From: Sedimentisphaerales bacterium
GTDB lineage: Bacteria; Planctomycetota; Phycisphaerae; Sedimentisphaerales; Anaerobacaceae
Length of the DNA: 64,000 nt
Direction of reading: 5' to 3'
NCBI GenBank assembly: GCA_963708075.1
Contig: OY970194.1
Coordinates: forward strand, 2,368,001-2,432,000
The stretch's first letter is position 1. Each line of letters starts with the position of its first letter. Both the position numbers and the translations under genes were made by a program. The notes under the pieces were generated by a model. That model was not told the origin of the DNA. It saw only the letters and a list, made by a program, of their open reading frames with translations, and ran no database searches. Below, in pieces: positions 26,441 to 42,609 of this stretch.

Positions 26441-26998
26441 TCACAAATAGATTTCCCGCCGTCCTTGCCCCTGTCGTGACAACCCTCGCTCGATCAAGCA
26501 AGCGTAGCTGTCGGCGGTGTGCGGCACGTCGGACAATCCAATCATGGACTGCACCTGTCCAATCGTGCCGGAGTCCGGCCCTTCGATCTCCACGAATGCT
26601 CCTATCAGCGGCAACTCATCCAGGGCGACTTCACACCCACGCAGACTCCACAAGCGACGTCTCTTATTGAACGCCAGAGCCTTCTGGTAACCAAGCCCGC
26701 CGAGCAGCGATTCCGTCGTCGCCGCGTCCTTCACTTCAAGCTCGGCCTCCTGCCGCTTCTTGAAGTCATCCTTTTCCTTGGGGCCCTTGTAGGCAAGGAT
26801 GAGCCGCTCTCGCAACGCCGTCTTCTCAATCCGCAGCCGCAGGCATTTATCCGCCCTCGTCAACTCGCGGTCGGCCGTGTCAAAGTACCAATCCGTCTGA
26901 ACAACCTCGCGCAGGAAGGACGCTCCGCACTCTGCGAGCCTGCGCTCAACCTCGTGCAGCGAATCCACCTTCAGCTTGGCCTCGATCTCCACGTGCAT
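26441..26998 (-). CDS. CYTH-domain protein (class IV adenylate cyclase, CyaB-like)
   Basis: EIEAK, QTDWYFD, LRLR, YKGP, KRR, FVEIEG, SY. Confidence 0.88.
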   Translation of the reverse strand: MHVEIEAKLKVDSLHEVERRLAECGASFLREVVQTDWYFDTADRELTRADKCLRLRIEKTALRERLILAYKGPKEKDDFKKRQEAELEVKDAATTESLLGGLGYQKALAFNKRRRLWSLRGCEVALDELPLIGAFVEIEGPDSGTIGQVQSMIGLSDVPHTADSYACLIERGLSRQGQGRREIYL

Positions 26999-29825: not shown

Positions 29826-30893
29826 TCAATTCAGCCAAGCTGAGAACAAGCTTCCAAAGCCGTCCGTCAAACCGGCGACAGAGACATTCGCCATGATCGT
29901 GAACGGTATGTCGCTCAGGTCGTTGACGGACAGCCTCGTGCTGCTGGAGACCCGGATCAGGCACAGGTCGGACTCGACCAGAGGAACCACCCACCTGTAC
30001 TGGCCGGTGTTGCCGATGTTCGGCGGGTACACGGGCGACCACATTCCACCCGCGTCGATCGAGAATTCCACGAGCACGTCTTCCGCAATACCCGTACTCG
30101 TCCATTTGATCGCCATGATGTCGCCTGCATCGACGGTGACGGCGGTGTTCGGCACCGTCAGAGTAATGGATGCCTCGGCGGGTGTGATGACCGGGCGCAA
30201 CTTGCTGAAGCTCTGCGAGCCCCAGCGGTTCGGTGAGCCGAAGGTACTGAAATCATCGCCGTCGTCATAGTCAGTCGAGTTCGCCAGGACCGTGGCGCTC
30301 GGGTTATCCTCCAGACGGCAAACCTCGGTGCTGCTGATTCCAGTGGCGGGACTGACGCCCTCCCCTGCGGGTCCAAAGATGGTCGCACCACTCGCGTTTC
30401 GTATCTTCAACTGCCAGTTCGTGGCGCTGACGGGAAAGGATGACTTCTTGATGTACTTGCCGTCGCCGTTGTTGTTGGCCTGCACATTGATCCACCAGTC
30501 CCCGGCGGCAGGATTATAGCTGACGTCGCTGGGCACGTCCTCGGCCACCGTGATGATCGTGCCGGCCCGCAGATCACTCCATATCGCGTCCTGCGTCAGG
30601 GTAAGCGTCTCGTCGAGAACCCCGTCCTCGTATACGTCGAGCTGCCAGCCCTTCATATTCAGATGGTCCTTGATGACGACCAGCTCGAACCAATCGCCGC
30701 CGTTACCCATGACGCGACCAAAGTACGTGTCGAAGGCCCGGCCGCCCGCTTCGTCCATCGCGGCATCGCCGCCGCCAAGGAAGTCGTTGCTATCGACGGC
30801 GTTATACTCGTTCAAGATAATGTCCGCCGCCCAGACGCCCTGGGCCATGAATGATAGCACCGCAACCAACAATAATGTCCGTGTCGTGCTCAT
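29826..30893 (-). CDS. Secreted lamin-tail-like domain protein with a C-terminal Ig-like domain
   Basis: Signal peptide ending VWA; ILNEYN, DWFEL, GWQL, STFGSPN; then IKWTSTG...EFSIDAG...YRWVVP. Confidence 0.75.
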   Translation of the reverse strand: MSTTRTLLLVAVLSFMAQGVWAADIILNEYNAVDSNDFLGGGDAAMDEAGGRAFDTYFGRVMGNGGDWFELVVIKDHLNMKGWQLDVYEDGVLDETLTLTQDAIWSDLRAGTIITVAEDVPSDVSYNPAAGDWWINVQANNNGDGKYIKKSSFPVSATNWQLKIRNASGATIFGPAGEGVSPATGISSTEVCRLEDNPSATVLANSTDYDDGDDFSTFGSPNRWGSQSFSKLRPVITPAEASITLTVPNTAVTVDAGDIMAIKWTSTGIAEDVLVEFSIDAGGMWSPVYPPNIGNTGQYRWVVPLVESDLCLIRVSSSTRLSVNDLSDIPFTIMANVSVAGLTDGFGSLFSAWLN

Positions 30894-30997
30894 GATTCCA
30901 CCCTTTCTCTCACTCAGAGGCAATAGAAAAACCCTTGACTCCGTTCAAGATAGCCCCCATCTCTGCACAGGCCATCGATCTCTACTATACCATGGGA

Positions 30998-32629
30998 TCA
31001 TTCCCGTGTCAATGATGGGTCCGCATTCGATGCGGTTCTTGCCACGGGCGTTGTGGAGGGTCCGATCTCCCACATGCCGTCCGGCCGGACCTGGAGCACT
31101 TCCGTATCACGATAGAAGTTCAGGGTCGCTGTGGCGTAATCAACGAGCGCATCGGCGGCCTCGTTGCAGGAATTGTACAAATGTTGCTCGGCATCGAGGA
31201 CGCGCCGGCTGCTCACCCGCGAGTACTCCAGGAGCACGGATGTCTTTCGGATGCGCTCGCGAGCCAGCTCGAGCCCTTCCGACAAAACCTCATATCTCTC
31301 CGCCGCTTCCATCAGCTTGCGATGAGCCTCGCGGACTTCCAGGCGAACGGTATCTGCCGACAGATCATATTCGCGCTGCCGCTGGTTCAGCAGGACCAAC
31401 GCCTTGCGATACACGCCCTGCTCGGGCACCCGGTCCAACGGCAAATCGAGGACCGGCCCCACCGCAATGTCTTTTTCGCCTCTGGCGTCAACATCGACGG
31501 TGCCCACAACCGTAAGCCCCGCGCCCAAGGCATCCTTGGCCACGTACACGGCACGTTGCGCATCGAGCACCATATCAGCGCTGTTGACCACGTCCAGGCG
31601 CCGACACAGGGCTGCTTCAATCGCCTCATCAAGGACGAAATCCGGGCGCGGCAGACCGTGGGCCTGAAGCGCATCAAGCACGCCCATGTCCAACCCGAAC
31701 TCCGAGGTCGGCGGCACACCAAGGGTGATCTTGTACAAGTCCAGAGATCGCTCGTACTCCTTGTCCGCCAGAATGTAGGTATCGCGAGCGCGAAGGATTT
31801 CCTGACGGACCCGGTCCAATTCTTCCGCCGGCAACCTCCCGGCTCCGACGAGACGCTCCACCTGGTCACGCAGTTTCTCGAGCGACTTGCGGTAGTCCTC
31901 CGTGTTCCGCGCGACCTCATACAACTCCAGGACCTCATAGTACTGCGTGATCACCGAGACCACGAACGTCTTGCGGAATCGATTGAAAGTCCTGATCTGG
32001 TACAGCGTGTTGCGTTCGGCCTGCGTCAGGGGCTCCAGCACCACTTTCGGATCGCTGCCGCGAAGCAGCGGCACCGTGACCGCCGCCCCCAGGATAGAAG
32101 AAAGGCCGCTCTCACGGAAGCCGAGAAGCGCATCTACCCACCGGGCTCCGACGCGAGTGCTGACCAGGGCGCCATTGGCGAGCAGACGGTTGAAGCCGAC
32201 GTTCCCCTCGACCGTCACGGTCTCATCCGTTCCATCGTTCGAGTAGATCGCGCTGCCGCCTCCGAACAATTGCCACTCGTATCCGTGGCGCACCAGACGC
32301 TGGTCGAGAGCCGTCGTATAGAGAAGCTCCTTCTGAAGCTGGTAGTCACGATTACGGGCAGTCGCGACGGCCACCGCCTCCTGCAGCGTCAGGACGCCCG
32401 ATACAGGAATGCTTCGATCCGCCTGAAGGTCATGGGGTGACGGTTCGACGTCGCTGATTCTGTAGTTTGCCTTTGTGCCGAGCTCCGGGGCCCACTTCCT
32501 GTCGATGATATCGTAGACCCTCTTGTCGGCATCCTGCTTGTAGTTCTTCGGACCACAGCCTGCCAGGATGGTCAAGGCGCCGAGACATACCAGACACAGC
32601 CATCTACGGTAATGTGATGTGTCCATCAT
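30998..32629 (-). CDS. TolC/outer-membrane efflux family lipoprotein
   Basis: Lipobox LAGC; LTLQEAV, VPLLRG, VITQYYEVL, LDLPLDR, RRVLDAEQ helical OEP repeats. Confidence 0.85.
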   Translation of the reverse strand: MMDTSHYRRWLCLVCLGALTILAGCGPKNYKQDADKRVYDIIDRKWAPELGTKANYRISDVEPSPHDLQADRSIPVSGVLTLQEAVAVATARNRDYQLQKELLYTTALDQRLVRHGYEWQLFGGGSAIYSNDGTDETVTVEGNVGFNRLLANGALVSTRVGARWVDALLGFRESGLSSILGAAVTVPLLRGSDPKVVLEPLTQAERNTLYQIRTFNRFRKTFVVSVITQYYEVLELYEVARNTEDYRKSLEKLRDQVERLVGAGRLPAEELDRVRQEILRARDTYILADKEYERSLDLYKITLGVPPTSEFGLDMGVLDALQAHGLPRPDFVLDEAIEAALCRRLDVVNSADMVLDAQRAVYVAKDALGAGLTVVGTVDVDARGEKDIAVGPVLDLPLDRVPEQGVYRKALVLLNQRQREYDLSADTVRLEVREAHRKLMEAAERYEVLSEGLELARERIRKTSVLLEYSRVSSRRVLDAEQHLYNSCNEAADALVDYATATLNFYRDTEVLQVRPDGMWEIGPSTTPVARTASNADPSLTRE

Positions 32630-32683
32630 TCTCAGGTGCCTCGGCGTTCAACACGCAAGCAAAGATGCGGCGAAAGCTCGCCG

Positions 32684-33913
32684 CTACAAGCCTCGGATTC
32701 CCACGACCTCGCCGGGGACAAGCGACAATCGTGGCGGAATGTTGATCAGCACGGGTTGTCCCCACTGGGGAACATTCGGGTTACGCCACAGGCGTTGCGG
32801 CATCAGTTCCATCGTGGGGCTGATCGACGCAATCTGCGACTCTGCGATCTGCGCCGGTGTCCTGATCTTGACCAGTTCCACCGACATACCCTCTTTGAGC
32901 ATGCTCAACTGCTGCTCACTCACGTACGCCACAATTTCGGTTGGCTCCTCCAGTGCGACCGCGAGAATCGGGTCCCCGGCCCGTACTACCTCGCCGACGC
33001 GCCGCATCACCTGTTCGCCCGGCCTTTGCTGTAGCGCATCGTTTTCCTGTACCGGAATGGGGATAATGCGACCTTTGATAGGTGATTTGAGCTCGACGGC
33101 TTTCCGGGATTTCAGCGCCGTGAGTTGTTCAAGGAGTCCCTTCATCAATTCTTCCTGCACCCCGATCTCTTTGCGGATCACCTCCAGCGCCTGATCCACT
33201 GAGGGCCCTGCGATCTCTTGTCCGGCAAACTGCTCCAGCCGCACCTCCGCTTCAGCCATGTCCGCTTTCGCCTGAGCCAGCAATCGCGAGTCCTCGTCGA
33301 TCTTCTTGCTCAGGCTGGCGCACTGCACCTTGACCTTGTCCAGCTCATAGGGTGCAATCACGTCTTCCTCAAGAAGCTTCTCAAGGATCTTCCTCTCCGA
33401 CATCAGATCGCCCAGAGTCAGTTCATCGGCGGCAATCGACCCCTGCAACTGCATGACTCGCACGCGATAATTGTCCGCATCCATGGCGATCCGGTTCAGG
33501 TCTCCTGACCGGCTGATTTCCAGGTTCCGCTTCTCCGCCTGCATCGTCTCCTGGGTTGGGATCAGTTGGGCGGCCAGATGCTCGATTTCGGCCATGACAC
33601 CGGCCAACTCCCCTTTGAGCTCCGCTTCCAGCGTCTGCTCGTTATCGAGGATCGTGTCCACGACCGCCAAGGTCTGTCCGGCGATCACTGGCTCGTATAA
33701 TGCGACCGAAATGTCCTTGATGCGGCCGGTGCTGCTCGCCGCCACCTGGCGCACCTCCCCCCTCGCGATGCCCACGATTTCAAATCGGTGAGCACGCTGA
33801 CGAAGGAGCCCGACTACGCCACCGACAGCCACCAGCCAGACCATCACCGGCACTGCGTGACGCAGGTAGGAGCGTTTCTGCTCGTGACTACTTGGTGCGG
33901 CTTTTCTTCCCAT
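32684..33913 (-). CDS. HlyD-like periplasmic adaptor (membrane fusion protein)
   Basis: N-terminal TM, lipoyl halves (TGRIKDI...AGQTLA; LKSPIKG...VGEVVRAGDPI) flanking a long coiled coil; LVPGEVV end. Confidence 0.85.
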   Translation of the reverse strand: MGRKAAPSSHEQKRSYLRHAVPVMVWLVAVGGVVGLLRQRAHRFEIVGIARGEVRQVAASSTGRIKDISVALYEPVIAGQTLAVVDTILDNEQTLEAELKGELAGVMAEIEHLAAQLIPTQETMQAEKRNLEISRSGDLNRIAMDADNYRVRVMQLQGSIAADELTLGDLMSERKILEKLLEEDVIAPYELDKVKVQCASLSKKIDEDSRLLAQAKADMAEAEVRLEQFAGQEIAGPSVDQALEVIRKEIGVQEELMKGLLEQLTALKSRKAVELKSPIKGRIIPIPVQENDALQQRPGEQVMRRVGEVVRAGDPILAVALEEPTEIVAYVSEQQLSMLKEGMSVELVKIRTPAQIAESQIASISPTMELMPQRLWRNPNVPQWGQPVLINIPPRLSLVPGEVVGIRGL

Positions 33914-33921
33914 CGTGCGGC

Positions 33922-34617
33922 CTAGGCTTCGAGGAGCCTCTCCTGCATCGTCAGATTGATGTTCTCGATCCCTTCGACCTTCTCTAACTCGGCGACAAAC
34001 TCATTGTTCATGGCGACATTGCGTATCATGATCTGATAGGCGTATTCGGCCGGTCCGCCGAAACCGCTGTCCTGCACCGAGATCAGGCTGAAGCTCCCAC
34101 AGAACCGATGCAGAATATTGGACACCGGATGGTTTGGACCCAGTGGGCCTCGCAGGCCGAAGCGAAGGAAACCATTGTGAGGCTCATGCGAGCCAAAATC
34201 GGTGAAATGCAGGTACACGGCGATCGAGCACAGAATCAGCGTCCCCAGGATCGACGTCAGGTATCGGTGCGAGCCGCAAGCCATGCCGATCACCAACGCG
34301 CAAAAGACGAAGGCGATGTCACGCGTGTCCTTGAGCACGTTCCGGAAGCGGACGATGGCTAACGCGCCCATCAGCCCGACGGCCGTGATGATGTTGTTCC
34401 CGATCACCGACATCACCATGGAGACGATTACCGTGATCAGGATCAGCGATTGCACATAAGAGCGGGAATAGGACAATCCCGTGTGCGTAAGGTAATAAAC
34501 CCACGCAAGCACCTGCCCCAGCACAAATGCCAGCAGAAGCGAAAGAAGCACGGCCTGGGGAGTGAACATCCCGCTGCCCAGCGACGTGTCCTCCAGGACT
34601 TGCCACCATCTATCCAT
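33922..34617 (-). CDS. DUF4956 family membrane protein
   Basis: Four to five TM helices, YSRSYVQSL, GLMGALAIVRFRNVLKDTRD, C-terminal ACT-like soluble part. Confidence 0.88.
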   Translation of the reverse strand: MDRWWQVLEDTSLGSGMFTPQAVLLSLLLAFVLGQVLAWVYYLTHTGLSYSRSYVQSLILITVIVSMVMSVIGNNIITAVGLMGALAIVRFRNVLKDTRDIAFVFCALVIGMACGSHRYLTSILGTLILCSIAVYLHFTDFGSHEPHNGFLRFGLRGPLGPNHPVSNILHRFCGSFSLISVQDSGFGGPAEYAYQIMIRNVAMNNEFVAELEKVEGIENINLTMQERLLEA

Positions 34618-35518
34618 TCCACGGACTCCTCAGGGCCGGGGCACAGAAGCCAAACCGGCACGCCTGTTCGATAGATGTGGCGTACTTGGATACCGAATTC
34701 AACACCAAGCCGAAGTCCTCCACCAGGCGGCTGAGCCACAGGGGATACGTTCCCGTGAACTTGATCTCCAGGATTACGTTGTTCATTGTAACATCATTGC
34801 GCTGCCAGCCGGAACCCCCAAGTCGCACATACGGCTCGTGCGTGACCTTGTAACAGAGATCCCGGTCAAAGGTCACCCTCACCCGGTTCTGGGAAGGGCT
34901 CTCCCAGGCCTGCCTCTTATAGCGGACCAGAACCATCGGGCCGGCATGGATGCTTGCCACGTACAACTGAAACTGATTCAAGGCGGCCTCGTCGGTCGTA
35001 TAGCCTTGCGGGGGCAACGACATGCCCCGGATCAAGACCGGCACATCACCGTCCATCACGCGCGCCCGGCTTTTCATGATCACGCGATTGATCCGCCGCT
35101 TGATCTCAAAGAAACGCGGGTACTCGGGCTCATCCGTGTAGCTGCGAATCCGCAGCTTGAACCGGTTTTTCACCCCCGTCATGGTCTCCCGGCACAGCCG
35201 CAGGTCCGGAGAGTCCAAATACAGGCTGACGATCGGGTAATACCCTCCCCGTTGCAGCTTGGAGTAGCGGTCCGGCTCGAGAAACGGCCTGATATACCTT
35301 TCAATGGCCGCGGTCTCGATCTCCGTAATGAGGTATTTCATCTCATATCGGCACGCGAGCATCCGGTCAACCGTCTTCTTCGGCTGCCGGTCAGGGCGCA
35401 CCTTCGGACTGTCCTTCTGCCCCGGGGCATTGTCACAAGCCCGTCGTTCTGAGTCATTTGTCATCATACCGGCCTTCTCCGCCGCATTACCTGGCGAGGC
35501 CGGATTTCGTAATTCCAA
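34610..35518 (-). CDS. VTC-domain polyphosphate polymerase (triphosphate tunnel metalloenzyme)
   Basis: RYEMKY, SLYLD, KLRIRSY, FEIKRR, YKRQAW, RVRVTFD, ILEIKF, SKY match Vtc4 catalytic-tunnel motifs. Confidence 0.88.
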   Translation of the reverse strand: MELRNPASPGNAAEKAGMMTNDSERRACDNAPGQKDSPKVRPDRQPKKTVDRMLACRYEMKYLITEIETAAIERYIRPFLEPDRYSKLQRGGYYPIVSLYLDSPDLRLCRETMTGVKNRFKLRIRSYTDEPEYPRFFEIKRRINRVIMKSRARVMDGDVPVLIRGMSLPPQGYTTDEAALNQFQLYVASIHAGPMVLVRYKRQAWESPSQNRVRVTFDRDLCYKVTHEPYVRLGGSGWQRNDVTMNNVILEIKFTGTYPLWLSRLVEDFGLVLNSVSKYATSIEQACRFGFCAPALRSPWNG

Positions 35519-35647
35519 ATCCGTGACACTCCTTCATGGTCCGGCCTTGACCTCGCAAACGCAAGTGACGCCCTCCCAAGCAGTTACACGTCATCATTCC
35601 TTAACCTCGCACTGGAGATGGTCAATTCCAGCCCGAGCTTCTTATCT

Positions 35648-35677
35648 ATTTTAACACACGGACCCACTCACAGTCAA
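35648..35677 (-). promoter_or_regulatory. Sigma70-like promoter of the VTC-DUF4956-HlyD-TolC unit
   Basis: Minus strand TTGACT-N18-TAAAAT with TG extended -10. Confidence 0.55.
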
Positions 35678-35750
35678 GAGCCTGTCACCCAGTTTCCCTT
35701 GTCATCACGCAAAGCCTGACCACGTCCGATAAACCATGATTCCGATGCAT

Positions 35751-38700
35751 CTACGGCTCCTCATGCCTGAGAGGGTCCGGCTCGTTAGCGGCCCCCGGAG
35801 AAGGAACCGCGGAATGCCAGTTGGCGGGGTCGTTGCCATACGCAGCGGAATCCGTCCGGTTCAGGGACATGCCCAAGCCGTTGGCATCCCCGGGCCACGG
35901 GTCAGTGCGCTCAGGGAAATCCCGCCCGTGCGCCCCGTCACTGTACACGACCCGATCCACACGAATCCAGTTACGCGTTCCATTTGCATCCACGTTGCCG
36001 GGCTTGCTGAGCTGGATCTTTGCCGGACCGTTGACCAGCTTGCCGGCGCCCCAGGCAAGAATCTGCACGCCCACAGGGGCCGTGTACTTCGAACTGAACA
36101 AGCCCGTGTCTTTCACCAGCAGCAGGTACTCGCCTGCTGCGAGCGTCACAGGTGGATTCTCAGGCAGCAGCAACTCAACGGATGGCTCCTCCGGATCATC
36201 CGTGAATCGCCAGGGAGCTTCTCTGACTGCGTCGTACAACGTCACAGGCTCATCGCTGATATTGAGCAGCTCCACGTACTCGGCGTCTACAGGATTCTCC
36301 GGATGGTACATGATCTCATTGATCACCACCGGCCCCACTCTCGGAGCAGCATTCTCCGCACCAGGCGTGGCCATGCTCATCGCCACGAAGTTGTATGTAC
36401 CCATGCTCTTCTCGTAGCGACCCAGGGAGACTCCCGCCTCGGAGGCATCGAATTTCTCCTGCTCGCTGTAGCCGGTCAGGACGCCTGCGGAACCGGAATG
36501 CAGATAGACCGTTTCTCCATCGGCGCTCAGGGCAAAGGGCTCATGGCTGCCCGGATCGGCCTGGCTGTTGAAGTGGCGGTTCTCATAGAACACGATGTAC
36601 TCACCGGCGGCGATACTTGCCCCGGCGGCCACCTCGTACTGGGTCAGATTGTTCGCGTCATCGCTGAGGAACCAGCCTCCGATATCAATGGGCTGATCGG
36701 TCGTATTGTGCAGCTCGATCCAATCGGGTCCGCTGTCCTGGGAGTTGGCCAGAAGCTCATTGATGACCACGGAGCCGAGCGGAGGCACCTGGCCGCTATC
36801 GTCAGTACCGGGCGAGCCGCCTGCCTTGGCGCTGGGCCGCCAGACAATCTTATCATCGTACGCATTGGGGTCGGCTGTCCTCGGGTCTCTTACGGTAAGC
36901 GAGAAACCCAGCCCGTCAGTGATATCGAACCAGTTGTCTTCGAGGCGGAAATCGTGAATGTCTGTGCCCACGGCATCGAGCAATTCGATCCGCTCTCCCG
37001 CGTTGTTCAGGTTGCCTACGTACTGGCCCACGACAGGCAGACTCGAGCCGTACCGGGCCTGGAAGGCTGTCGCGTTCCTGACCAGCAGGGAGTAGCGGCT
37101 GGGAGCCAATTCCAGGTCCGGGAAGGTGAAGTAGACGCCATTGGCGAGCTTCACCAGGTTCAGATTGATGCTCTCATCGCCGATGTTGATCAGCTCGATG
37201 AATTCGGTATTGGGATCATTCGGGTCGTCCGTCTCGACCGGGTGGTACATGATCTCGCTAATCCGCAGGTTCTCCGCGATCGGCCCGACGGAGAAGACCG
37301 CCTCGTTCAAAGCGCTCCAGGCGCCGCCGCTCAGTGCCCGGGCCTTGACCTGCACGCTCTTGTCCAGCGTCACGGGACCTGTGTACTTGATGGCGGTCGG
37401 CGAAATCCCACCGCTCGCGGCAGATGTCCCTTGCCCCCACTCCAGCGAGGCCTGGATGATGAAGTCCGAGCTTGTCGGCGAGGAATTCAAGCCATGAATG
37501 GCGAGGATGTTCTGCCCCTGCCGCAACAGGCTGATGTGCTCGTCGATCGGGAAGATCTCGGCGGCATCGCCCTCATGGTTGGCTTGAGCGGCGGAATTCC
37601 ATGCCGGTGTCCCGGTGAACGAGGCCCTCTGCACTTCGACGCCGTTGAGGTAGGCGACAAAACCGTCGTCATATTGGACCCTGAGTGACAGCGACTTGTA
37701 CGTGCTCGGGTCTGCGGCCACATCGAAGGGGATTCGTATGTAGCAGCCCGCCGCGATTCCATACATCTGCCGATTCAGATCGAGGCTGATCAGGGACTCA
37801 TACCCGAGGCTGCGCTCGTAACCGACCCCGCCGGGGCCGCCCGCCACGGTCATCCAGGTCGCATCATTGAAATCCTCACCGCCCTTCCATGCCTCTTCGA
37901 CTTCACCGGTCGGAACGAGGACGCGTTTGGTCGTGTTCTCGGCCACCAGGATCTGGCCTCCGGAGCTCCCCGCCTTCTCCGGCAGCCGCGGATCCGTGCC
38001 GTCCAGGGTGTAGTAGATGTCGTCTGACGCCTGCATTCTCAGCTCGAAGCCAACGGGGACATGCCCGCCGTGCTGATTGAAGCTCGGGGCCCATACGTCG
38101 GGATACCAACCATGGCTCCTCAACTGGTCCAGGACCACCGACGTCCGGTTCGGAAGGCCGAAGTCGCCATAGTCGTTGATGATGCGATTGACCTCGTTCT
38201 CCCAGTCCGCCTTCGTAAACGCGGTCGAGCGCTTCGCGTCGCCCCAGCGAGCGGACTCGGCGATGATGGCCATCTCGATTTGGCCGGCCCGGTCGAGCAT
38301 GCGCTGCCTCGATCTTGCGTAGGCCAGAACCCCGTTGTTGAAGAAATGCTTGTGCACGCGATCGGCCAAGCGCATGCGGAACTCCGGATGTTCGAGCAGC
38401 CTTTGCTGCAACCACTGGGGCGTGAAGTACTCGAAGCGCGCAGATCCGGATGCGTGAAAGGCCCCGTCCGATCCAGGCCCCAGCCATAGCGGTCGATCAA
38501 GGTGTGCTCGGCGTCATGCCGGAACCACTTGAAACCATCCGGATTCGCATGATTGTAGACGCTGTAGTAGTTGTTCGGCCGGTTGTTGCCGAGAAAATTG
38601 GATATAGGCCCGTCAAAATCTCCCGCGTAGAAGGTGCACAGCATGTAGTCGATCAGGTTATCCGGGTCGAGCAGCTTGGGGTACTCGGGGTTGGGCGTCC

Positions 38701-40426
38701 CATCCGGATTCAGGCCCTGGATCCGATAATACGGCTCCTCGACATTGAAGCCGGCCACAGCAGCCTGCCAGAGCAGACGGCAGGCATCCAGGGCGCCGTC
38801 CGTCGCCTCGATGGTGTAGCTGGGGTTGCCGCCTACGGTCTTTACGACGTCGTAATCCTCCTTGCCTCCCCCGAAGTAGGATTCAGCGTACGAGGCTTCC
38901 GGCCGCTCTTCCGTCTGGAACAAACCCCAGTACTGGCCATTGAGATAGAGATGATAGTAGCGACTTCGGGTGTAGGATTGGCCCATGTCCCGCTGCGTGT
39001 CACGAGAGAAGACGTCGCGGAGGAATGTGTGCCTTTCAGACCCGTCATAGGCCCAGGAGTAGTTCTGGCTGGTCCGCAGATCGATGTTTTCGAATTCGTC
39101 CACTCCCTCTTTGCCGAAGAGTGGATACTTGAGCTTTGGCGTGCCGTACTCACTTCGAAAGAACAGGCGAAACGCGTGTTTGGGATTCGAGTCGCTGCGG
39201 CTGTATCCGCCGCGAACCCGCAGTCCGGCGTCAACCTGGAATCCCTCCGTCTCATCCGGATGAATCAACTCGACGGAAACCAGCCGCTCCCACTCCTGTC
39301 CGGTCCGCTTCGCATTCACGTAGATCCCTCGTTGCGAGTCGAAGAGATTGCTCACGTCCGTCGCGAGGGAAATCGTGGGGATGGAAAGCAGTGCATCACC
39401 CATCAGGTCCTTGTACCGGGGATCGTTCACGACATCCGGGTCCATGCCGTAGTCGATCGTCTGCCCGTTGACGCTGCCGGTGGGCCATCCGGGTCCGGGG
39501 GACCCTCCCGTCGGAGACTGCTTGATCACATCGGCAACGAAGATATAGGTGCGAGTCTCTATTGGCGAGGGTTGCCAGCCGGGCTTGACCGCGACCGCAC
39601 GCAGGCAGGCGGTCTTGTTGATTCGCACCGGCTCACTGTACAAGGCAGCCATGCTACTCGGACGGGCGGCATCGGCGACATACGGCACGCTGCCGTCCGT
39701 CGTGTAGTAGATCATCGCCCCTTCCGTCTCGCAGGTGATGGCTACGAAGAACTCCCGATCATGGAAGCCGTGGTCGAAATTGAACTTCGGCTTCCGTGTA
39801 ATCCCCTCGTAGATCCGGACGTTCGGGCCGCCGGGGGTGGGGAATGTCATCAGCCACCACGAGTCGTTCCCATCCGGGAATCGGCCGTAGGAGACGTTCG
39901 CCACCTGCTGGTCAAATGTGATAGTGTCGACCAGAGTGACGCCGTCCTTGTCGAACAGCGCCAGATCCTCGCCGCCGGCATTGAGCGAGAAGTCCGCATG
40001 CAGCCCCGGGTCCGCCACATCCCTGTCGGCCCAAATCACCAGGTAGCCATGGGGTGCAATGGTCGTCTGCGCAGCATCGCTGGTGGGAATGTGCCATTTC
40101 GCGGGTTGGAGCAGATCGTCCGTCAGGTACATCCCGCCGACATCGAACGGTGCGTCCCCCCGGTTATATAACTCAAGCCAGTCGTCCGGCTCGCCTTGCG
40201 GGTCTGAGTACTTGTCGCTCGAGTTTGACGCCAGGAACTCGTTGATGACGATGGGGATAGCCCCTGCCTCCAGATTCGCGTCCACAACCGTGTAATCGGC
40301 AAAGCCGCTACCGTCGCCAAGATCCCGAGAGGATGAAGCAGCTAGCGTGGAACCGCCGATACAGAGAATCAGCGCAAGCACGCGCACGCTGTCCGGCAAC
40401 ACATTCACCTTCGTCCTCCCGTGCAA
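35751..40426 (-). CDS. Large secreted CotH-kinase protein with multiple lamin-tail domains and Fn3-associated/CHB_HEX_C-like domains; one frameshift near 38441
   Basis: Signal peptide; LTD motifs (INEFLA, DWLELYN, TPGGPN; ISEIMYHP; INELLA; INEIMYHP); CotH motifs RGGYSR, LYLNGQYWGL, NNYY, IIAESARWGD; IYYTTDG/IYYTLDG. Confidence 0.85.
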
Positions 40427-40694: not shown

Positions 40695-41105
40695 TCACTG
40701 GTCGGCGCTGCTCCGCTCCCCAAGAGTATGTGAATCGAAGGACAACCATGGGCGAACCGCCTCGATCGTGGCAGGACCTATGCCTGTAACCCTTCGCAGA
40801 TCTTCGGCGCGTCTGAACGCGGGCCCCTGGCCGCCCCTCTCGCTGAATTGACTGCGGTAGGAGACAATCTGCCGAGCCCGCGCTGGGCCGATTCTCGGCA
40901 GTCTGGCCAGACTTTCGGGCAGCGCATCGTTCGGATTGATCGTGTCCTCGATCGCGAAGTGAACAGGGTGTGCGGATGTATCCGCCACGCTTACAGCAAA
41001 AGTGATGCCGGTTGCCACACAAAGGCATGCAAGACAGAGGAAACCAACCGATTCGATCAGGTCGCCGGACGGCTCGCTCCTGCCGGTGAAGACGCCGGAC
41101 ATCAT
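40695..41105 (-). CDS. ComEA-like helix-hairpin-helix DNA-binding protein
   Basis: TM segment, INPNDA, LPRIGPARA, FRRAEDLRRVTGIGPATIE. Confidence 0.85.
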   Translation of the reverse strand: MMSGVFTGRSEPSGDLIESVGFLCLACLCVATGITFAVSVADTSAHPVHFAIEDTINPNDALPESLARLPRIGPARARQIVSYRSQFSERGGQGPAFRRAEDLRRVTGIGPATIEAVRPWLSFDSHTLGERSSADQ

Positions 41106-41133
41106 CGGGCACCTCCCTGGGTCGCGTCCGTTC

Positions 41134-42609
41134 CTACCGCTTGAACATGGACACGTATACCCTCTTGAGCGTCTTGAATGCTTCTTTTGCCTCAAGCTGG
41201 TCAGTCAACAGGCCGCTGTACGCAATGGTGTCGTCCGGACCGTCTGCGAGGGTGCCGTAATTGACGGCTTCAACAAACGGTTTGCTCAAAGCAATCTTAT
41301 AGAAGCGATTGAGCCATTGACTTTGCCGAGTGTCATCCCATTTCTGGTGCCACACGCCGGCCACCTGGCTCTCAAATGGGCCGCTGCCGTTCTTGCTGGG
41401 GATCTCGACGTCGGTGATGTACAGCGGCTTGGCCACCACGGCAAAGCAATCGAGAATGGACGATATCTGCATCATGTCCCGCAGATGCATGCCCACTTCA
41501 TCTTTGCCGAAGCGCATCTGCAGTCCGAACGCATCGAAATTGGTCCCGCTCTGGACCACCATATCCATGTAGACAAACGGCGGAATACTGTTGGGCGTCG
41601 TGGCGTAATATTCGCCCCACGGATGGCTGACCTCAATGATTTTGACGGCCCGGCTGCCTGCCGCCTTCACACCCATACTGGCCGCACGCGTCATCTCGAG
41701 GATCTGCTCAAAATTGAAATTGAACTGGTTGTATGCGTTCAGGCCGCTGATCACGTACCATCGATGGACCACGTTGGCATAGCGGGCCACGACTTTGGAA
41801 ACGAACTGATACGCCAGTTCCCGGATCTTCTCGAAGCCAACCCCGGCCTGCAGGAGCCATTGGGGCAGGTGGTCTTCCGTGAAGCGAAGCAACGGTCCAA
41901 CGCCGATGACCACCTTCTTCCCGGCCAGCAGAGAAATGCACTGATCCACGGCGGAGAAATCCAGGTGTCCTTTTCGGGCTTCGATCTGCGCCCAGTTGAC
42001 AGGCACGGTCACCGAGGAAAAGAACTCCGTGAGTTTATCGAAATACTGAGGCTTGGCAATCAGGCGGGGATCGACCCGACAACCGAGACAGCCGCGGCCG
42101 AACCCATGATTCTTACGCCGCTTGTCAAAGAGCAGTTTCCCGTGTCGGATGGCCAGTTTCTCAGAGTATACCATGGCCCTCTTCAGGGCCTCGTCAGCCA
42201 GCCGGGATGCCTTCGCGCCGTTGTCGATGTTCTGGATCGCCTCGATAAACAGGTCCTGGGCCCCCTTCGAAATGTCCTCCATCCCCTCGACGCTATCGAA
42301 AAAGGACCAGTCTTCCCGCCGGTTGGTGATTTGCATAAGCTTGGCGCGGGTGATCTCGACGTTGAGATTATAGGGGCGTTCCCGCTCGGGCAGGCAGGTG
42401 GTGGGCAGCAGGATGCGGCCGAAACCGCTGATCGGCCACAGCAGGGCCAGGCCCGCCGTTTCTACGTTTGGCCTGATGCACTCGACGATGCCGTTGGTGG
42501 CGCCGATTCTCGCCCGGCGGATGCTGATGCCGTCCGTGCCGAACAGGTAGGCGCCGCAGGGCCTGAACTTCTCAACAAGTTCGCCATCTCTGAAGACCTG
42601 AAACTTCAC
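41134..42609 (-). CDS. GH10-like TIM-barrel protein without signal peptide (probably non-catalytic)
   Basis: WAQIE..G..DFS.VD, VVARY, W, FDAFGLQ, PLYIT, GLL...K.AF pattern resembles the GH10 barrel. Confidence 0.7.
   Translation of the reverse strand: MKFQVFRDGELVEKFRPCGAYLFGTDGISIRRARIGATNGIVECIRPNVETAGLALLWPISGFGRILLPTTCLPERERPYNLNVEITRAKLMQITNRREDWSFFDSVEGMEDISKGAQDLFIEAIQNIDNGAKASRLADEALKRAMVYSEKLAIRHGKLLFDKRRKNHGFGRGCLGCRVDPRLIAKPQYFDKLTEFFSSVTVPVNWAQIEARKGHLDFSAVDQCISLLAGKKVVIGVGPLLRFTEDHLPQWLLQAGVGFEKIRELAYQFVSKVVARYANVVHRWYVISGLNAYNQFNFNFEQILEMTRAASMGVKAAGSRAVKIIEVSHPWGEYYATTPNSIPPFVYMDMVVQSGTNFDAFGLQMRFGKDEVGMHLRDMMQISSILDCFAVVAKPLYITDVEIPSKNGSGPFESQVAGVWHQKWDDTRQSQWLNRFYKIALSKPFVEAVNYGTLADGPDDTIAYSGLLTDQLEAKEAFKTLKRVYVSMFKR

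Follow-up and report, generated by a model that had tools for sequence, protein, structure and literature searches.

A conserved planctomycete gene cluster uniting a VTC-type enzyme, an MgtC-family protein, an EmrA-type adaptor and a TolC-like factor: a candidate system for polyphosphate synthesis and export

The DNA considered here, the window, is a stretch of 64,000 nucleotides from the planctomycete Sedimentisphaerales bacterium (assembly GCA_963708075.1, contig OY970194.1, positions 2,368,001 to 2,432,000), whose genome, a single contig of 7.5 Mb with a completeness of 92.8%, tends to show frameshifts. Between window positions 29826 and 40426 lies a cluster of open reading frames (ORFs), all on the minus strand, that comprises in order a CotH gene, a VTC gene, a DUF4956 gene, a membrane fusion protein (MFP) gene, an outer membrane factor (OEP) gene and a last ORF. 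VTC (35518-34610) and DUF4956 (34617-33922) overlap by 8 nt, the MFP gene (33913-32684) follows DUF4956 after 8 nt and the OEP gene (32629-30998) follows the MFP gene after 54 nt, and these are the spacings claimed in a first-pass annotation of the sequence. CotH is separated from VTC by 232 nt, the OEP gene from the last ORF by 74 nt and the last ORF from leuS by 237 nt; the tight unit is VTC-DUF4956-MFP-OEP. The description of the cluster as six co-oriented genes is correct as to the shared strand, but the CotH-LTD gene appears as two ORFs in the window and the last ORF is not confirmed as an LTD protein.

The VTC gene (34610-35518, minus strand, with the true start probably an ATG near 35467) encodes a soluble VTC-domain enzyme of the triphosphate tunnel metalloenzyme (TTM) type, a predicted polyphosphate (polyP) polymerase (PF09359, E 6e-35) that has no transmembrane segment by hydropathy and is present as a single copy in the genome. 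A profile of 99 VTC sequences matches yeast Vtc4 (3g3q) at E 5e-32 and Vtc2/Vtc3 more weakly, at 5e-16 to 1e-13; a profile is required for this, as a single-sequence phmmer search against the PDB gave no significant match (E 0.42). The triphosphate and manganese ligands given for Vtc4 in the available part of the structural study, K200, R264, R266, K281, Y359, R361, E426, S457 and K458 (10.1101/2023.01.27.525886), all map in the printed alignment, where the nine counterparts are K15, R77, R79, K94, Y154, R156, E205, S231 and K232. Seven of these columns are conserved in 98-99 of the 99 sequences, with R79 found in 92 (Lys in the other 7) and S231 in 84, and the Vtc4-like tunnel motifs announced in the first-pass annotation are indeed present. 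K458 is the residue missing in the inactive Vtc2 and Vtc3. Judged by these residues, polymerase activity is likely.

The DUF4956 gene (33922-34617, minus strand; PF16316, E 3e-13) encodes a protein that is predicted to combine a five-helix MgtC-like membrane bundle with a C-terminal ACT-like domain. In the AlphaFold2 (AF2) model, with a pLDDT of 87.5, the five helices span residues 20-139 and are followed by a ferredoxin/ACT-like domain at 148-224. The DUF4956 profile aligns to a genuine MgtC protein (hhalign, 96% over 171 columns), and the protein stays under the MgtC cut-offs (PF02308, 19.5 versus 31.4 bits; NF007431, 19.9 versus 214). Its C-terminal part resembles ACT-type folds, including the C-terminal domains of MgtC proteins 7qa5 (Z 8.4, rmsd 3.1, 88 residues aligned) and 2lqj (Z 7.6), which stand among many tied rows of the structural search. 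A Foldseek search with the model returned no match at E 0.001 or better, and VTC chains were missing from the PDB matches of the profile. On profile evidence, DUF4956 is an MgtC-family membrane protein and not a homologue of Vtc1, with a functional analogy to Vtc1 possible. At the end of helix 3, G84, R90 and R92 are invariant in all 85 DUF4956 sequences, and are followed by the conserved K96, D97, R99 and D100. If the ACT domain is cytoplasmic, this region would lie on the cytoplasmic face, and the conserved basic residues would then resemble the basic rings that sit at the mouth of the yeast VTC channel (10.1101/2023.01.27.525886).

Prediction of a complex between VTC and three copies of DUF4956 gave a score of 0.32, whereas the highest-scoring of three controls stayed at 0.00; at least 54% of the contacts recurred between runs, and the partner pLDDT was at least 67. 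In the calibration of the tool, 18 of 157 solved complexes and 2 of 215 mismatches passed the mark with scores no higher than 0.60; the present job is unlike the calibration cases and the tool rates the result weak. The first-pass annotation had the soluble VTC protein docking on a DUF4956 channel. Of this, the docking is weakly favoured by the predicted contact, and the putative channel is qualified by the MgtC homology.

The next two genes encode proteins that resemble the outer components of tripartite systems. The first (32684-33913, minus strand) is an EmrA-type membrane fusion, or periplasmic adaptor, protein (Pfam HlyD_3, E 8e-9), which by hydropathy and AF2 analysis is anchored in the membrane at its N-terminus by one segment and has a long helical hairpin, and its best PDB match is EmrA 4tko (profile E 1e-29, Foldseek E 5e-18). 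The second (30998-32629, minus strand) is a TolC-family outer membrane factor with a lipoprotein-type signal (lipobox Cys25), matching PF02321 at E 7e-18 and TIGR01844 below cut-off. A profile of the MFP, applied at E 1e-45 or better with four candidates scored per genome, finds 35 places, spread over 32 of the 401 genomes and 15 families, every one of these genomes being VTC-positive, and none in the 291 VTC-negative genomes. Eight of these places fall outside the training set, seven of which lie 758-878 nt downstream of VTC, leaving room for one DUF4956, and one of which is at a contig break; the next-best MFP in the genome studied here matches the profile at E 2e-14. The MFP subfamily is dedicated to VTC-DUF4956 loci. 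Within 5 kb of the 57 loci with a DUF4956-adjacent MFP, a screen by hydropathy and Walker-A motif found no conserved multi-pass or ABC protein, with seven sporadic ORFs in six loci; the screen covers the locus only, and a partner could be encoded elsewhere. At the locus itself no ABC, RND or MFS pump is conserved.

VTC was found in 100 of 151 genomes of the family and in 110 of 401 genomes of the phylum. VTC, DUF4956 and MFP genes occur in this order in 32 of the 33 GTDB loci, the remaining locus ending at a contig edge, and an OEP gene follows the MFP gene in 25, being cut off in four and absent in four. From the 143 VTC places in the phylum, 80 loci were selected by score and contig room; 70 have DUF4956, 51 have CotH and 27 have MFP directly after DUF4956, and in six of the seven loci from the same order OEP follows MFP. 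Although leuS and a CYTH gene are also kept in close kin, the VTC-DUF4956-MFP order persists in other families, and mere vertical synteny was rejected as its explanation; the conserved synteny that the first-pass annotation relied on extends far beyond close kin. The best 120 of 373 matches in the homologue search are all close relatives; a plasmid search gave six VTC-like records and a metagenome scan one locus. In a quick maximum-likelihood tree of 83 DUF4956 proteins (midpoint-rooted, and excluding L029 and L070, which are contig ends), a single branch separates the 43 MFP-linked rows from all others (SH-aLRT 94), and none of these 43 has lost the MFP. The MFP link therefore represents one acquisition, kept over 30-60% sequence identity.

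VTC genes are also found in other settings. In a second context, seen mostly without DUF4956 and in CotH-rich genomes, VTC is directly followed by a protein of 560-620 residues with a thymidylate-kinase-like P-loop domain (L089:6820-8616, L096:9460-11133 and L141:5511-7382, with similar cases in L068, L077 and L140). PPK2 shares the thymidylate-kinase-like fold, and by analogy this protein could be a polyP-nucleotide kinase. In two loci (L108:6552-8885, L111:6410-8842) VTC-DUF4956 adjoins a protein of about 800 residues with EF-hand and PPDK_N (ATP-binding) domains, which replaces CotH, and in MFP-less loci (L035:5152-6258, L036, L038, L041, L052, L056) a conserved slot, beside a CotH whose C-terminus is of beta-helix type, holds a protein of about 366 residues, two members of which match TPR families. 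The order is rearranged to DUF4956-MFP (625 residues)-OEP-VTC in L060 and L115, where the MFP and OEP are more distant.

Upstream of the tight unit lies a gene for a predicted secreted CotH-family kinase of about 1550 residues (35751-40408, minus strand, probable GTG start at 40408), in which an N-terminal hydrophobic signal is followed by an LTD, a Fn3-associated/CHB_HEX_C region, the CotH domain and three further LTDs. In the window the reading frame of this gene shifts near 38440, which divides it into the ORFs 40426-38120 and 38411-35751. An extra base at 38440 is present in contigs from three of four runs (two studies), one contig being otherwise identical; the orthologues in L004, L006 and L016 are single ORFs of 1490-1500 residues, and frame changes occur in 8 of 18 long CotH-like loci of the same assembly. 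The split is therefore taken as a one-base assembly error in a single gene, and a real pseudogene is ruled out by the base carried in independent contigs together with the frequent frame changes of the assembly. The CotH domain matches PF08757 above cut-off and 5jd9 by profile (E 1e-51), and the catalytic Asp/Asn/Asp columns are conserved. In Bacillus CotH, which binds AMP and ATP, the adenine is sandwiched by Tyr142 and Trp245 (PMC12189002, a review). Across 62 CotH sequences the Trp245 column holds W in 29, H in 14, Y in 9 and F in 5, with His in the present copy, and the Tyr142 column holds K/R in 43 with an aromatic residue in the adjacent column; taken as a possible sign of polyP use, the pocket is similar in VTC-less genomes. 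Genome-wide, the CotH-core profile matches about 29 ORFs with an E of 1e-4 or better, many of them large and LTD-bearing, whereas VTC and DUF4956 each occur once. Other planctomycetes (G267, G316, G332, G347, G375, G389, G467, G478) have 36-70 CotH candidates at a first look.

CotH was found in 124 of the 401 genomes, comprising 94 of the 110 that are VTC-positive and 30 of the 291 that are VTC-negative. This is in keeping with the co-occurrence of VTC, DUF4956 and CotH mentioned in the first-pass annotation, and the same core block is described in the available part of a study of pel genes (10.1101/768473). The polyphosphate kinases (PPK) PPK1 (PF02503) and PPK2 (PF03976) were not found in the 92.8% complete, frameshift-prone genome studied here. 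Across the phylum PPK1 occurs in 243 of 401 genomes overall, in 25 of the 30 with CotH only, in 48 of the 94 with CotH and VTC and in 159 of the 261 with neither CotH nor VTC, and 119 of the 124 CotH genomes have either VTC or PPK1. A role of VTC as simple substitute for PPK1 was considered and is not seen, with PPK1 in 59 of 110 VTC genomes. Within the family, PPK1 is independent of VTC (VTC in 12 of 18 PPK1 genomes versus 100 of 151 overall).

We propose, tentatively and as something that falls a little short of probable, that VTC, DUF4956, MFP and OEP form a polyP polymerase coupled to a new inner membrane class of tripartite exporter, in which synthesis drives export. The soluble VTC enzyme, docked on a DUF4956 oligomer, would build polyP from ATP, and the oligomer would pass the growing chain into the EmrA-type adaptor and then the TolC-like duct to reach the cell surface. 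In this arrangement, comparable to yeast VTC, the polymerase would do the work that an ABC, RND or MFS motor does in ordinary tripartite pumps. Once outside, polyP could be the phosphoryl donor for secreted CotH kinases, directly or through nucleotide regeneration, or it could be a surface polyanion. Use of the polymer by CotH would be a further step beyond the export model, and the full chain, in which a Vtc4-type polymerase would push polyP through a pore of the MgtC family, the EmrA-type adaptor and the TolC-like duct and one such machine would feed a genome-wide set of dozens of secreted CotH kinases, is less likely than not as a whole.

A number of observations weigh against synthesis-coupled export, beginning with the enzyme. 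Hydrolytic TTMs share a Vtc4-like tunnel while carrying an acidic patch, and the available part of one structural account indicates that such a tunnel can be a tripolyphosphatase (PMC4641920). Furthermore, E13, conserved in 97 of 99 sequences, places a Glu at the second-metal ligand position of TTM hydrolases, where Vtc4 has Thr. A hydrolase-type Glu would suit a different, rather unlikely system, in which the cargo carried out by DUF4956, MFP and OEP for CotH is a nucleotide or a short condensed phosphate (ATP, PPPi), and VTC acts as triphosphatase or transferase in preparing or recycling that cargo; the binding of AMP and ATP by Bacillus CotH (PMC12189002) points the same way. Against a short cargo, the other mappable acidic-patch positions, Glu-2 and Glu-171 of the TTM hydrolases, appear by motif mapping to be basic as in Vtc4 (R11 in 88 of 99, K207 in 99 of 99), three of the four patch positions being covered by the mapping, and the K458 and S457 equivalents are kept. 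The adjacency of CotH and DUF4956 bears on both sides: it persists in four genomes in which no VTC was found (G493, G241, G348 and G468; loci L131, L132, L134 and L135), as a short cargo would allow, but all four are PPK1-positive, which fits a polyP cargo, though the base rate of PPK1 is itself 243 of 401.

The membrane components raise further points of this kind. The membrane part of DUF4956 matched no listed structure, and it was barely probed because matches to the C-terminal domain filled the wide structural search. DUF4956 is also, by profile, homologous to MgtC, whose known actions, in the available part of the source, are regulatory protein contacts such as binding to PhoR (PMC6658541). 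It is conceivable, if unlikely, that DUF4956 is an MgtC-like regulator or anchor, that MFP and OEP work with an ABC or MFS pump from another locus to export some other surface component, and that VTC makes cytoplasmic polyP under the same control. Such an arrangement would sit well with the MgtC homology over 171 columns, the ACT-like C-terminus and the few conserved charges inside the DUF4956 helices, and with the EmrA-like character of the MFP, EmrA being the partner of an MFS pump; with neither PPK1 nor PPK2 found in a 93% complete genome, VTC could be a storage polymerase. It accounts less well for an MFP subfamily that was found in no genome without VTC and that sits immediately after DUF4956, for the lack of a conserved pump in the 57 loci, and for the independence of PPK1 and VTC within the family.

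The distribution of the adaptor and duct genes must be set beside these points. Outside this order OEP follows MFP in only 4 of 20 loci, so that the TolC-like gene is optional. Adaptors often work with a shared TolC encoded elsewhere, and for this reason the rarity of OEP weakens the idea of a duct and does not refute it. The MFP link, being of single origin, counts as one event, and 40 of the 83 rows of the DUF4956 tree lack an MFP although each of them comes from a diderm planctomycete. The first-pass annotation asked whether HlyD and TolC are present in diderms and absent in monoderms, and the division does not follow so simple a line.

The link to CotH is also exposed to doubt. The co-occurrence counts ignore relatedness, and as kin are not independent they overstate the association. 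In the 30 CotH genomes without VTC the VTC profile found nothing, and the DUF4956 profile matched nine, five of them strongly; G467, a single contig that is 91% complete, has 55 CotH candidates but neither VTC nor PPK1, and its DUF4956 profile search gave no clear match. The CotH gene next to VTC is moreover one of the approximately 29 CotH-type hits in its genome. The 30 CotH genomes without VTC, together with the 232 nt and the promoter-like site between CotH and VTC, would be explained if polyP were made and exported as a periplasmic or surface polyanion (for metal binding, matrix or phosphate storage) and CotH were co-located for no other reason than that both act at the cell surface, which we regard as improbable. 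Of the 33 GTDB loci, many of which are truncated, no more than 14 have a CotH domain in the DNA retrieved, as do 51 of the 80 phylum loci, and in monoderms the block adjoins pel polysaccharide genes (10.1101/768473). On the other hand, the genome-level co-occurrence of CotH and VTC is strong, the block of cotH, polyP polymerase and DUF4956 is kept in streptococci, clostridia and bifidobacteria in the available part of the same study (10.1101/768473), and CotH stays beside DUF4956 even where VTC was not found.

The surroundings of the unit were also described. The last ORF (29826-30923, minus strand, probable ATG start at 30893) encodes a secreted protein with a signal-like N-terminus that belongs to no known family, is weakly LTD-like and appears to be a local accessory. 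It has no Pfam or NCBIfam match and none to PF00932, and the leads towards an LTD are an hhalign probability of 8% and an Atlas top match to LTD at 0.85, which leaves its earlier naming as an LTD protein unconfirmed. In 20 of the 33 GTDB loci it stands as a free gene, its N-terminal domain lies inside the VTC-adjacent CotH protein in L032, and it was not found in the 80 phylum loci. Sigma70-like sites were identified as pattern matches upstream of CotH, of VTC (35648-35677, minus strand, 10/12) and of the last ORF (30984-31012, minus strand, 11/12, extended TG), with the count of 5 not above the 3.7 ± 2.0 obtained in shuffles. Upstream of CotH, two genes (40695-42609, minus strand), one ComEA-like with a helix-hairpin-helix and the other GH10-like, are syntenic in L004, L006, L007 and L009. 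Beyond leuS, 3 kb from the cluster, lies a gene for a CYTH-domain (triphosphate tunnel) protein (26441-26998, minus strand) that close kin keep together with leuS. The cluster has no pel genes as neighbours.

The locus is real and conserved, and its architecture is unusual and was found undescribed: in the literature searched, mostly open papers without their supplements, there was no description of the MFP-linked system, only of the cotH-VTC-DUF4956 core. In the available parts of the sources, VTC4 is listed as eukaryotic (PMC13318637), and PPK-independent extracellular polyP is reported in Bacillus cereus with an export mechanism called unknown and no VTC4 homologue (PMC13484657, a 2026 preprint), so that the present type of locus does not explain the polyP of B. 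cereus. Should the export model be correct, it would reveal an inner membrane class of tripartite exporter beyond ABC, RND and MFS, a PPK-independent bacterial polyP polymerase with the first polyP export route, and the first transport function for the MgtC fold. It would also offer an answer to how secreted kinases obtain a phosphoryl donor outside the cytoplasm. The unit consists of four small genes, and the idea is therefore directly testable by heterologous expression.

Comparison with known systems helps to place the cluster. With the eukaryotic VTC complex (Vtc4/Vtc3/Vtc1; 3g3q, 7ytj, 8i6v) it shares a homologous tunnel domain with all nine ligands, and the pairing of that enzyme with a small membrane protein bearing conserved basic residues. 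In contrast to the eukaryotic complex, the enzyme is free-standing, without an SPX or membrane domain, and has an extra conserved Glu; the partner is a five-helix protein of the MgtC family instead of the three-helix domains of Vtc1 type that form a pentameric channel, and the locus further includes MFP and OEP. What the cluster has in common with tripartite pumps and type 1 secretion systems (EmrAB-TolC, MacAB-TolC, HlyBD-TolC) is an EmrA-type adaptor and a TolC-family factor encoded by adjacent, co-oriented genes, whereas no ABC, RND or MFS transporter is conserved at the present locus, where an MgtC-like protein and a TTM enzyme stand in its place; ABC, RND and MFS are the motors named in the available part of an account of such systems, which there mentions neither polyP nor MgtC (PMC8277102). 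While DUF4956 shares a homologous membrane bundle and an ACT-like C-terminal domain with MgtC/SapB proteins, it falls below the MgtC cut-offs, carries an invariant RFR motif and is linked to VTC, CotH and MFP. The kinase domain is homologous to that of the Bacillus spore-coat kinase CotH (5jd9/5jda), with the same catalytic Asp/Asn/Asp, but the protein is large, signal-bearing and decorated with LTD and Fn3 domains, is one of about 29 CotH-type hits in its genome and carries His for Trp245. Closest in gene content are the Gram-positive block in which cotH, a poly-phosphate polymerase, DUF4956 and DUF4832 lie beside pel genes, to which no tested function is given (10.1101/768473), and the NELoc-2 locus of Clostridium perfringens with its VTC and CotH genes (PMC2879425). 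These share the cotH-VTC-DUF4956 core, and in the available parts of both papers no MFP or OEP is named and the function of the polymerase and DUF4956 is unassigned. We prefer to think of the planctomycete system as one that would combine the action of yeast VTC with that of a tripartite exporter, while departing from each in a defining feature.

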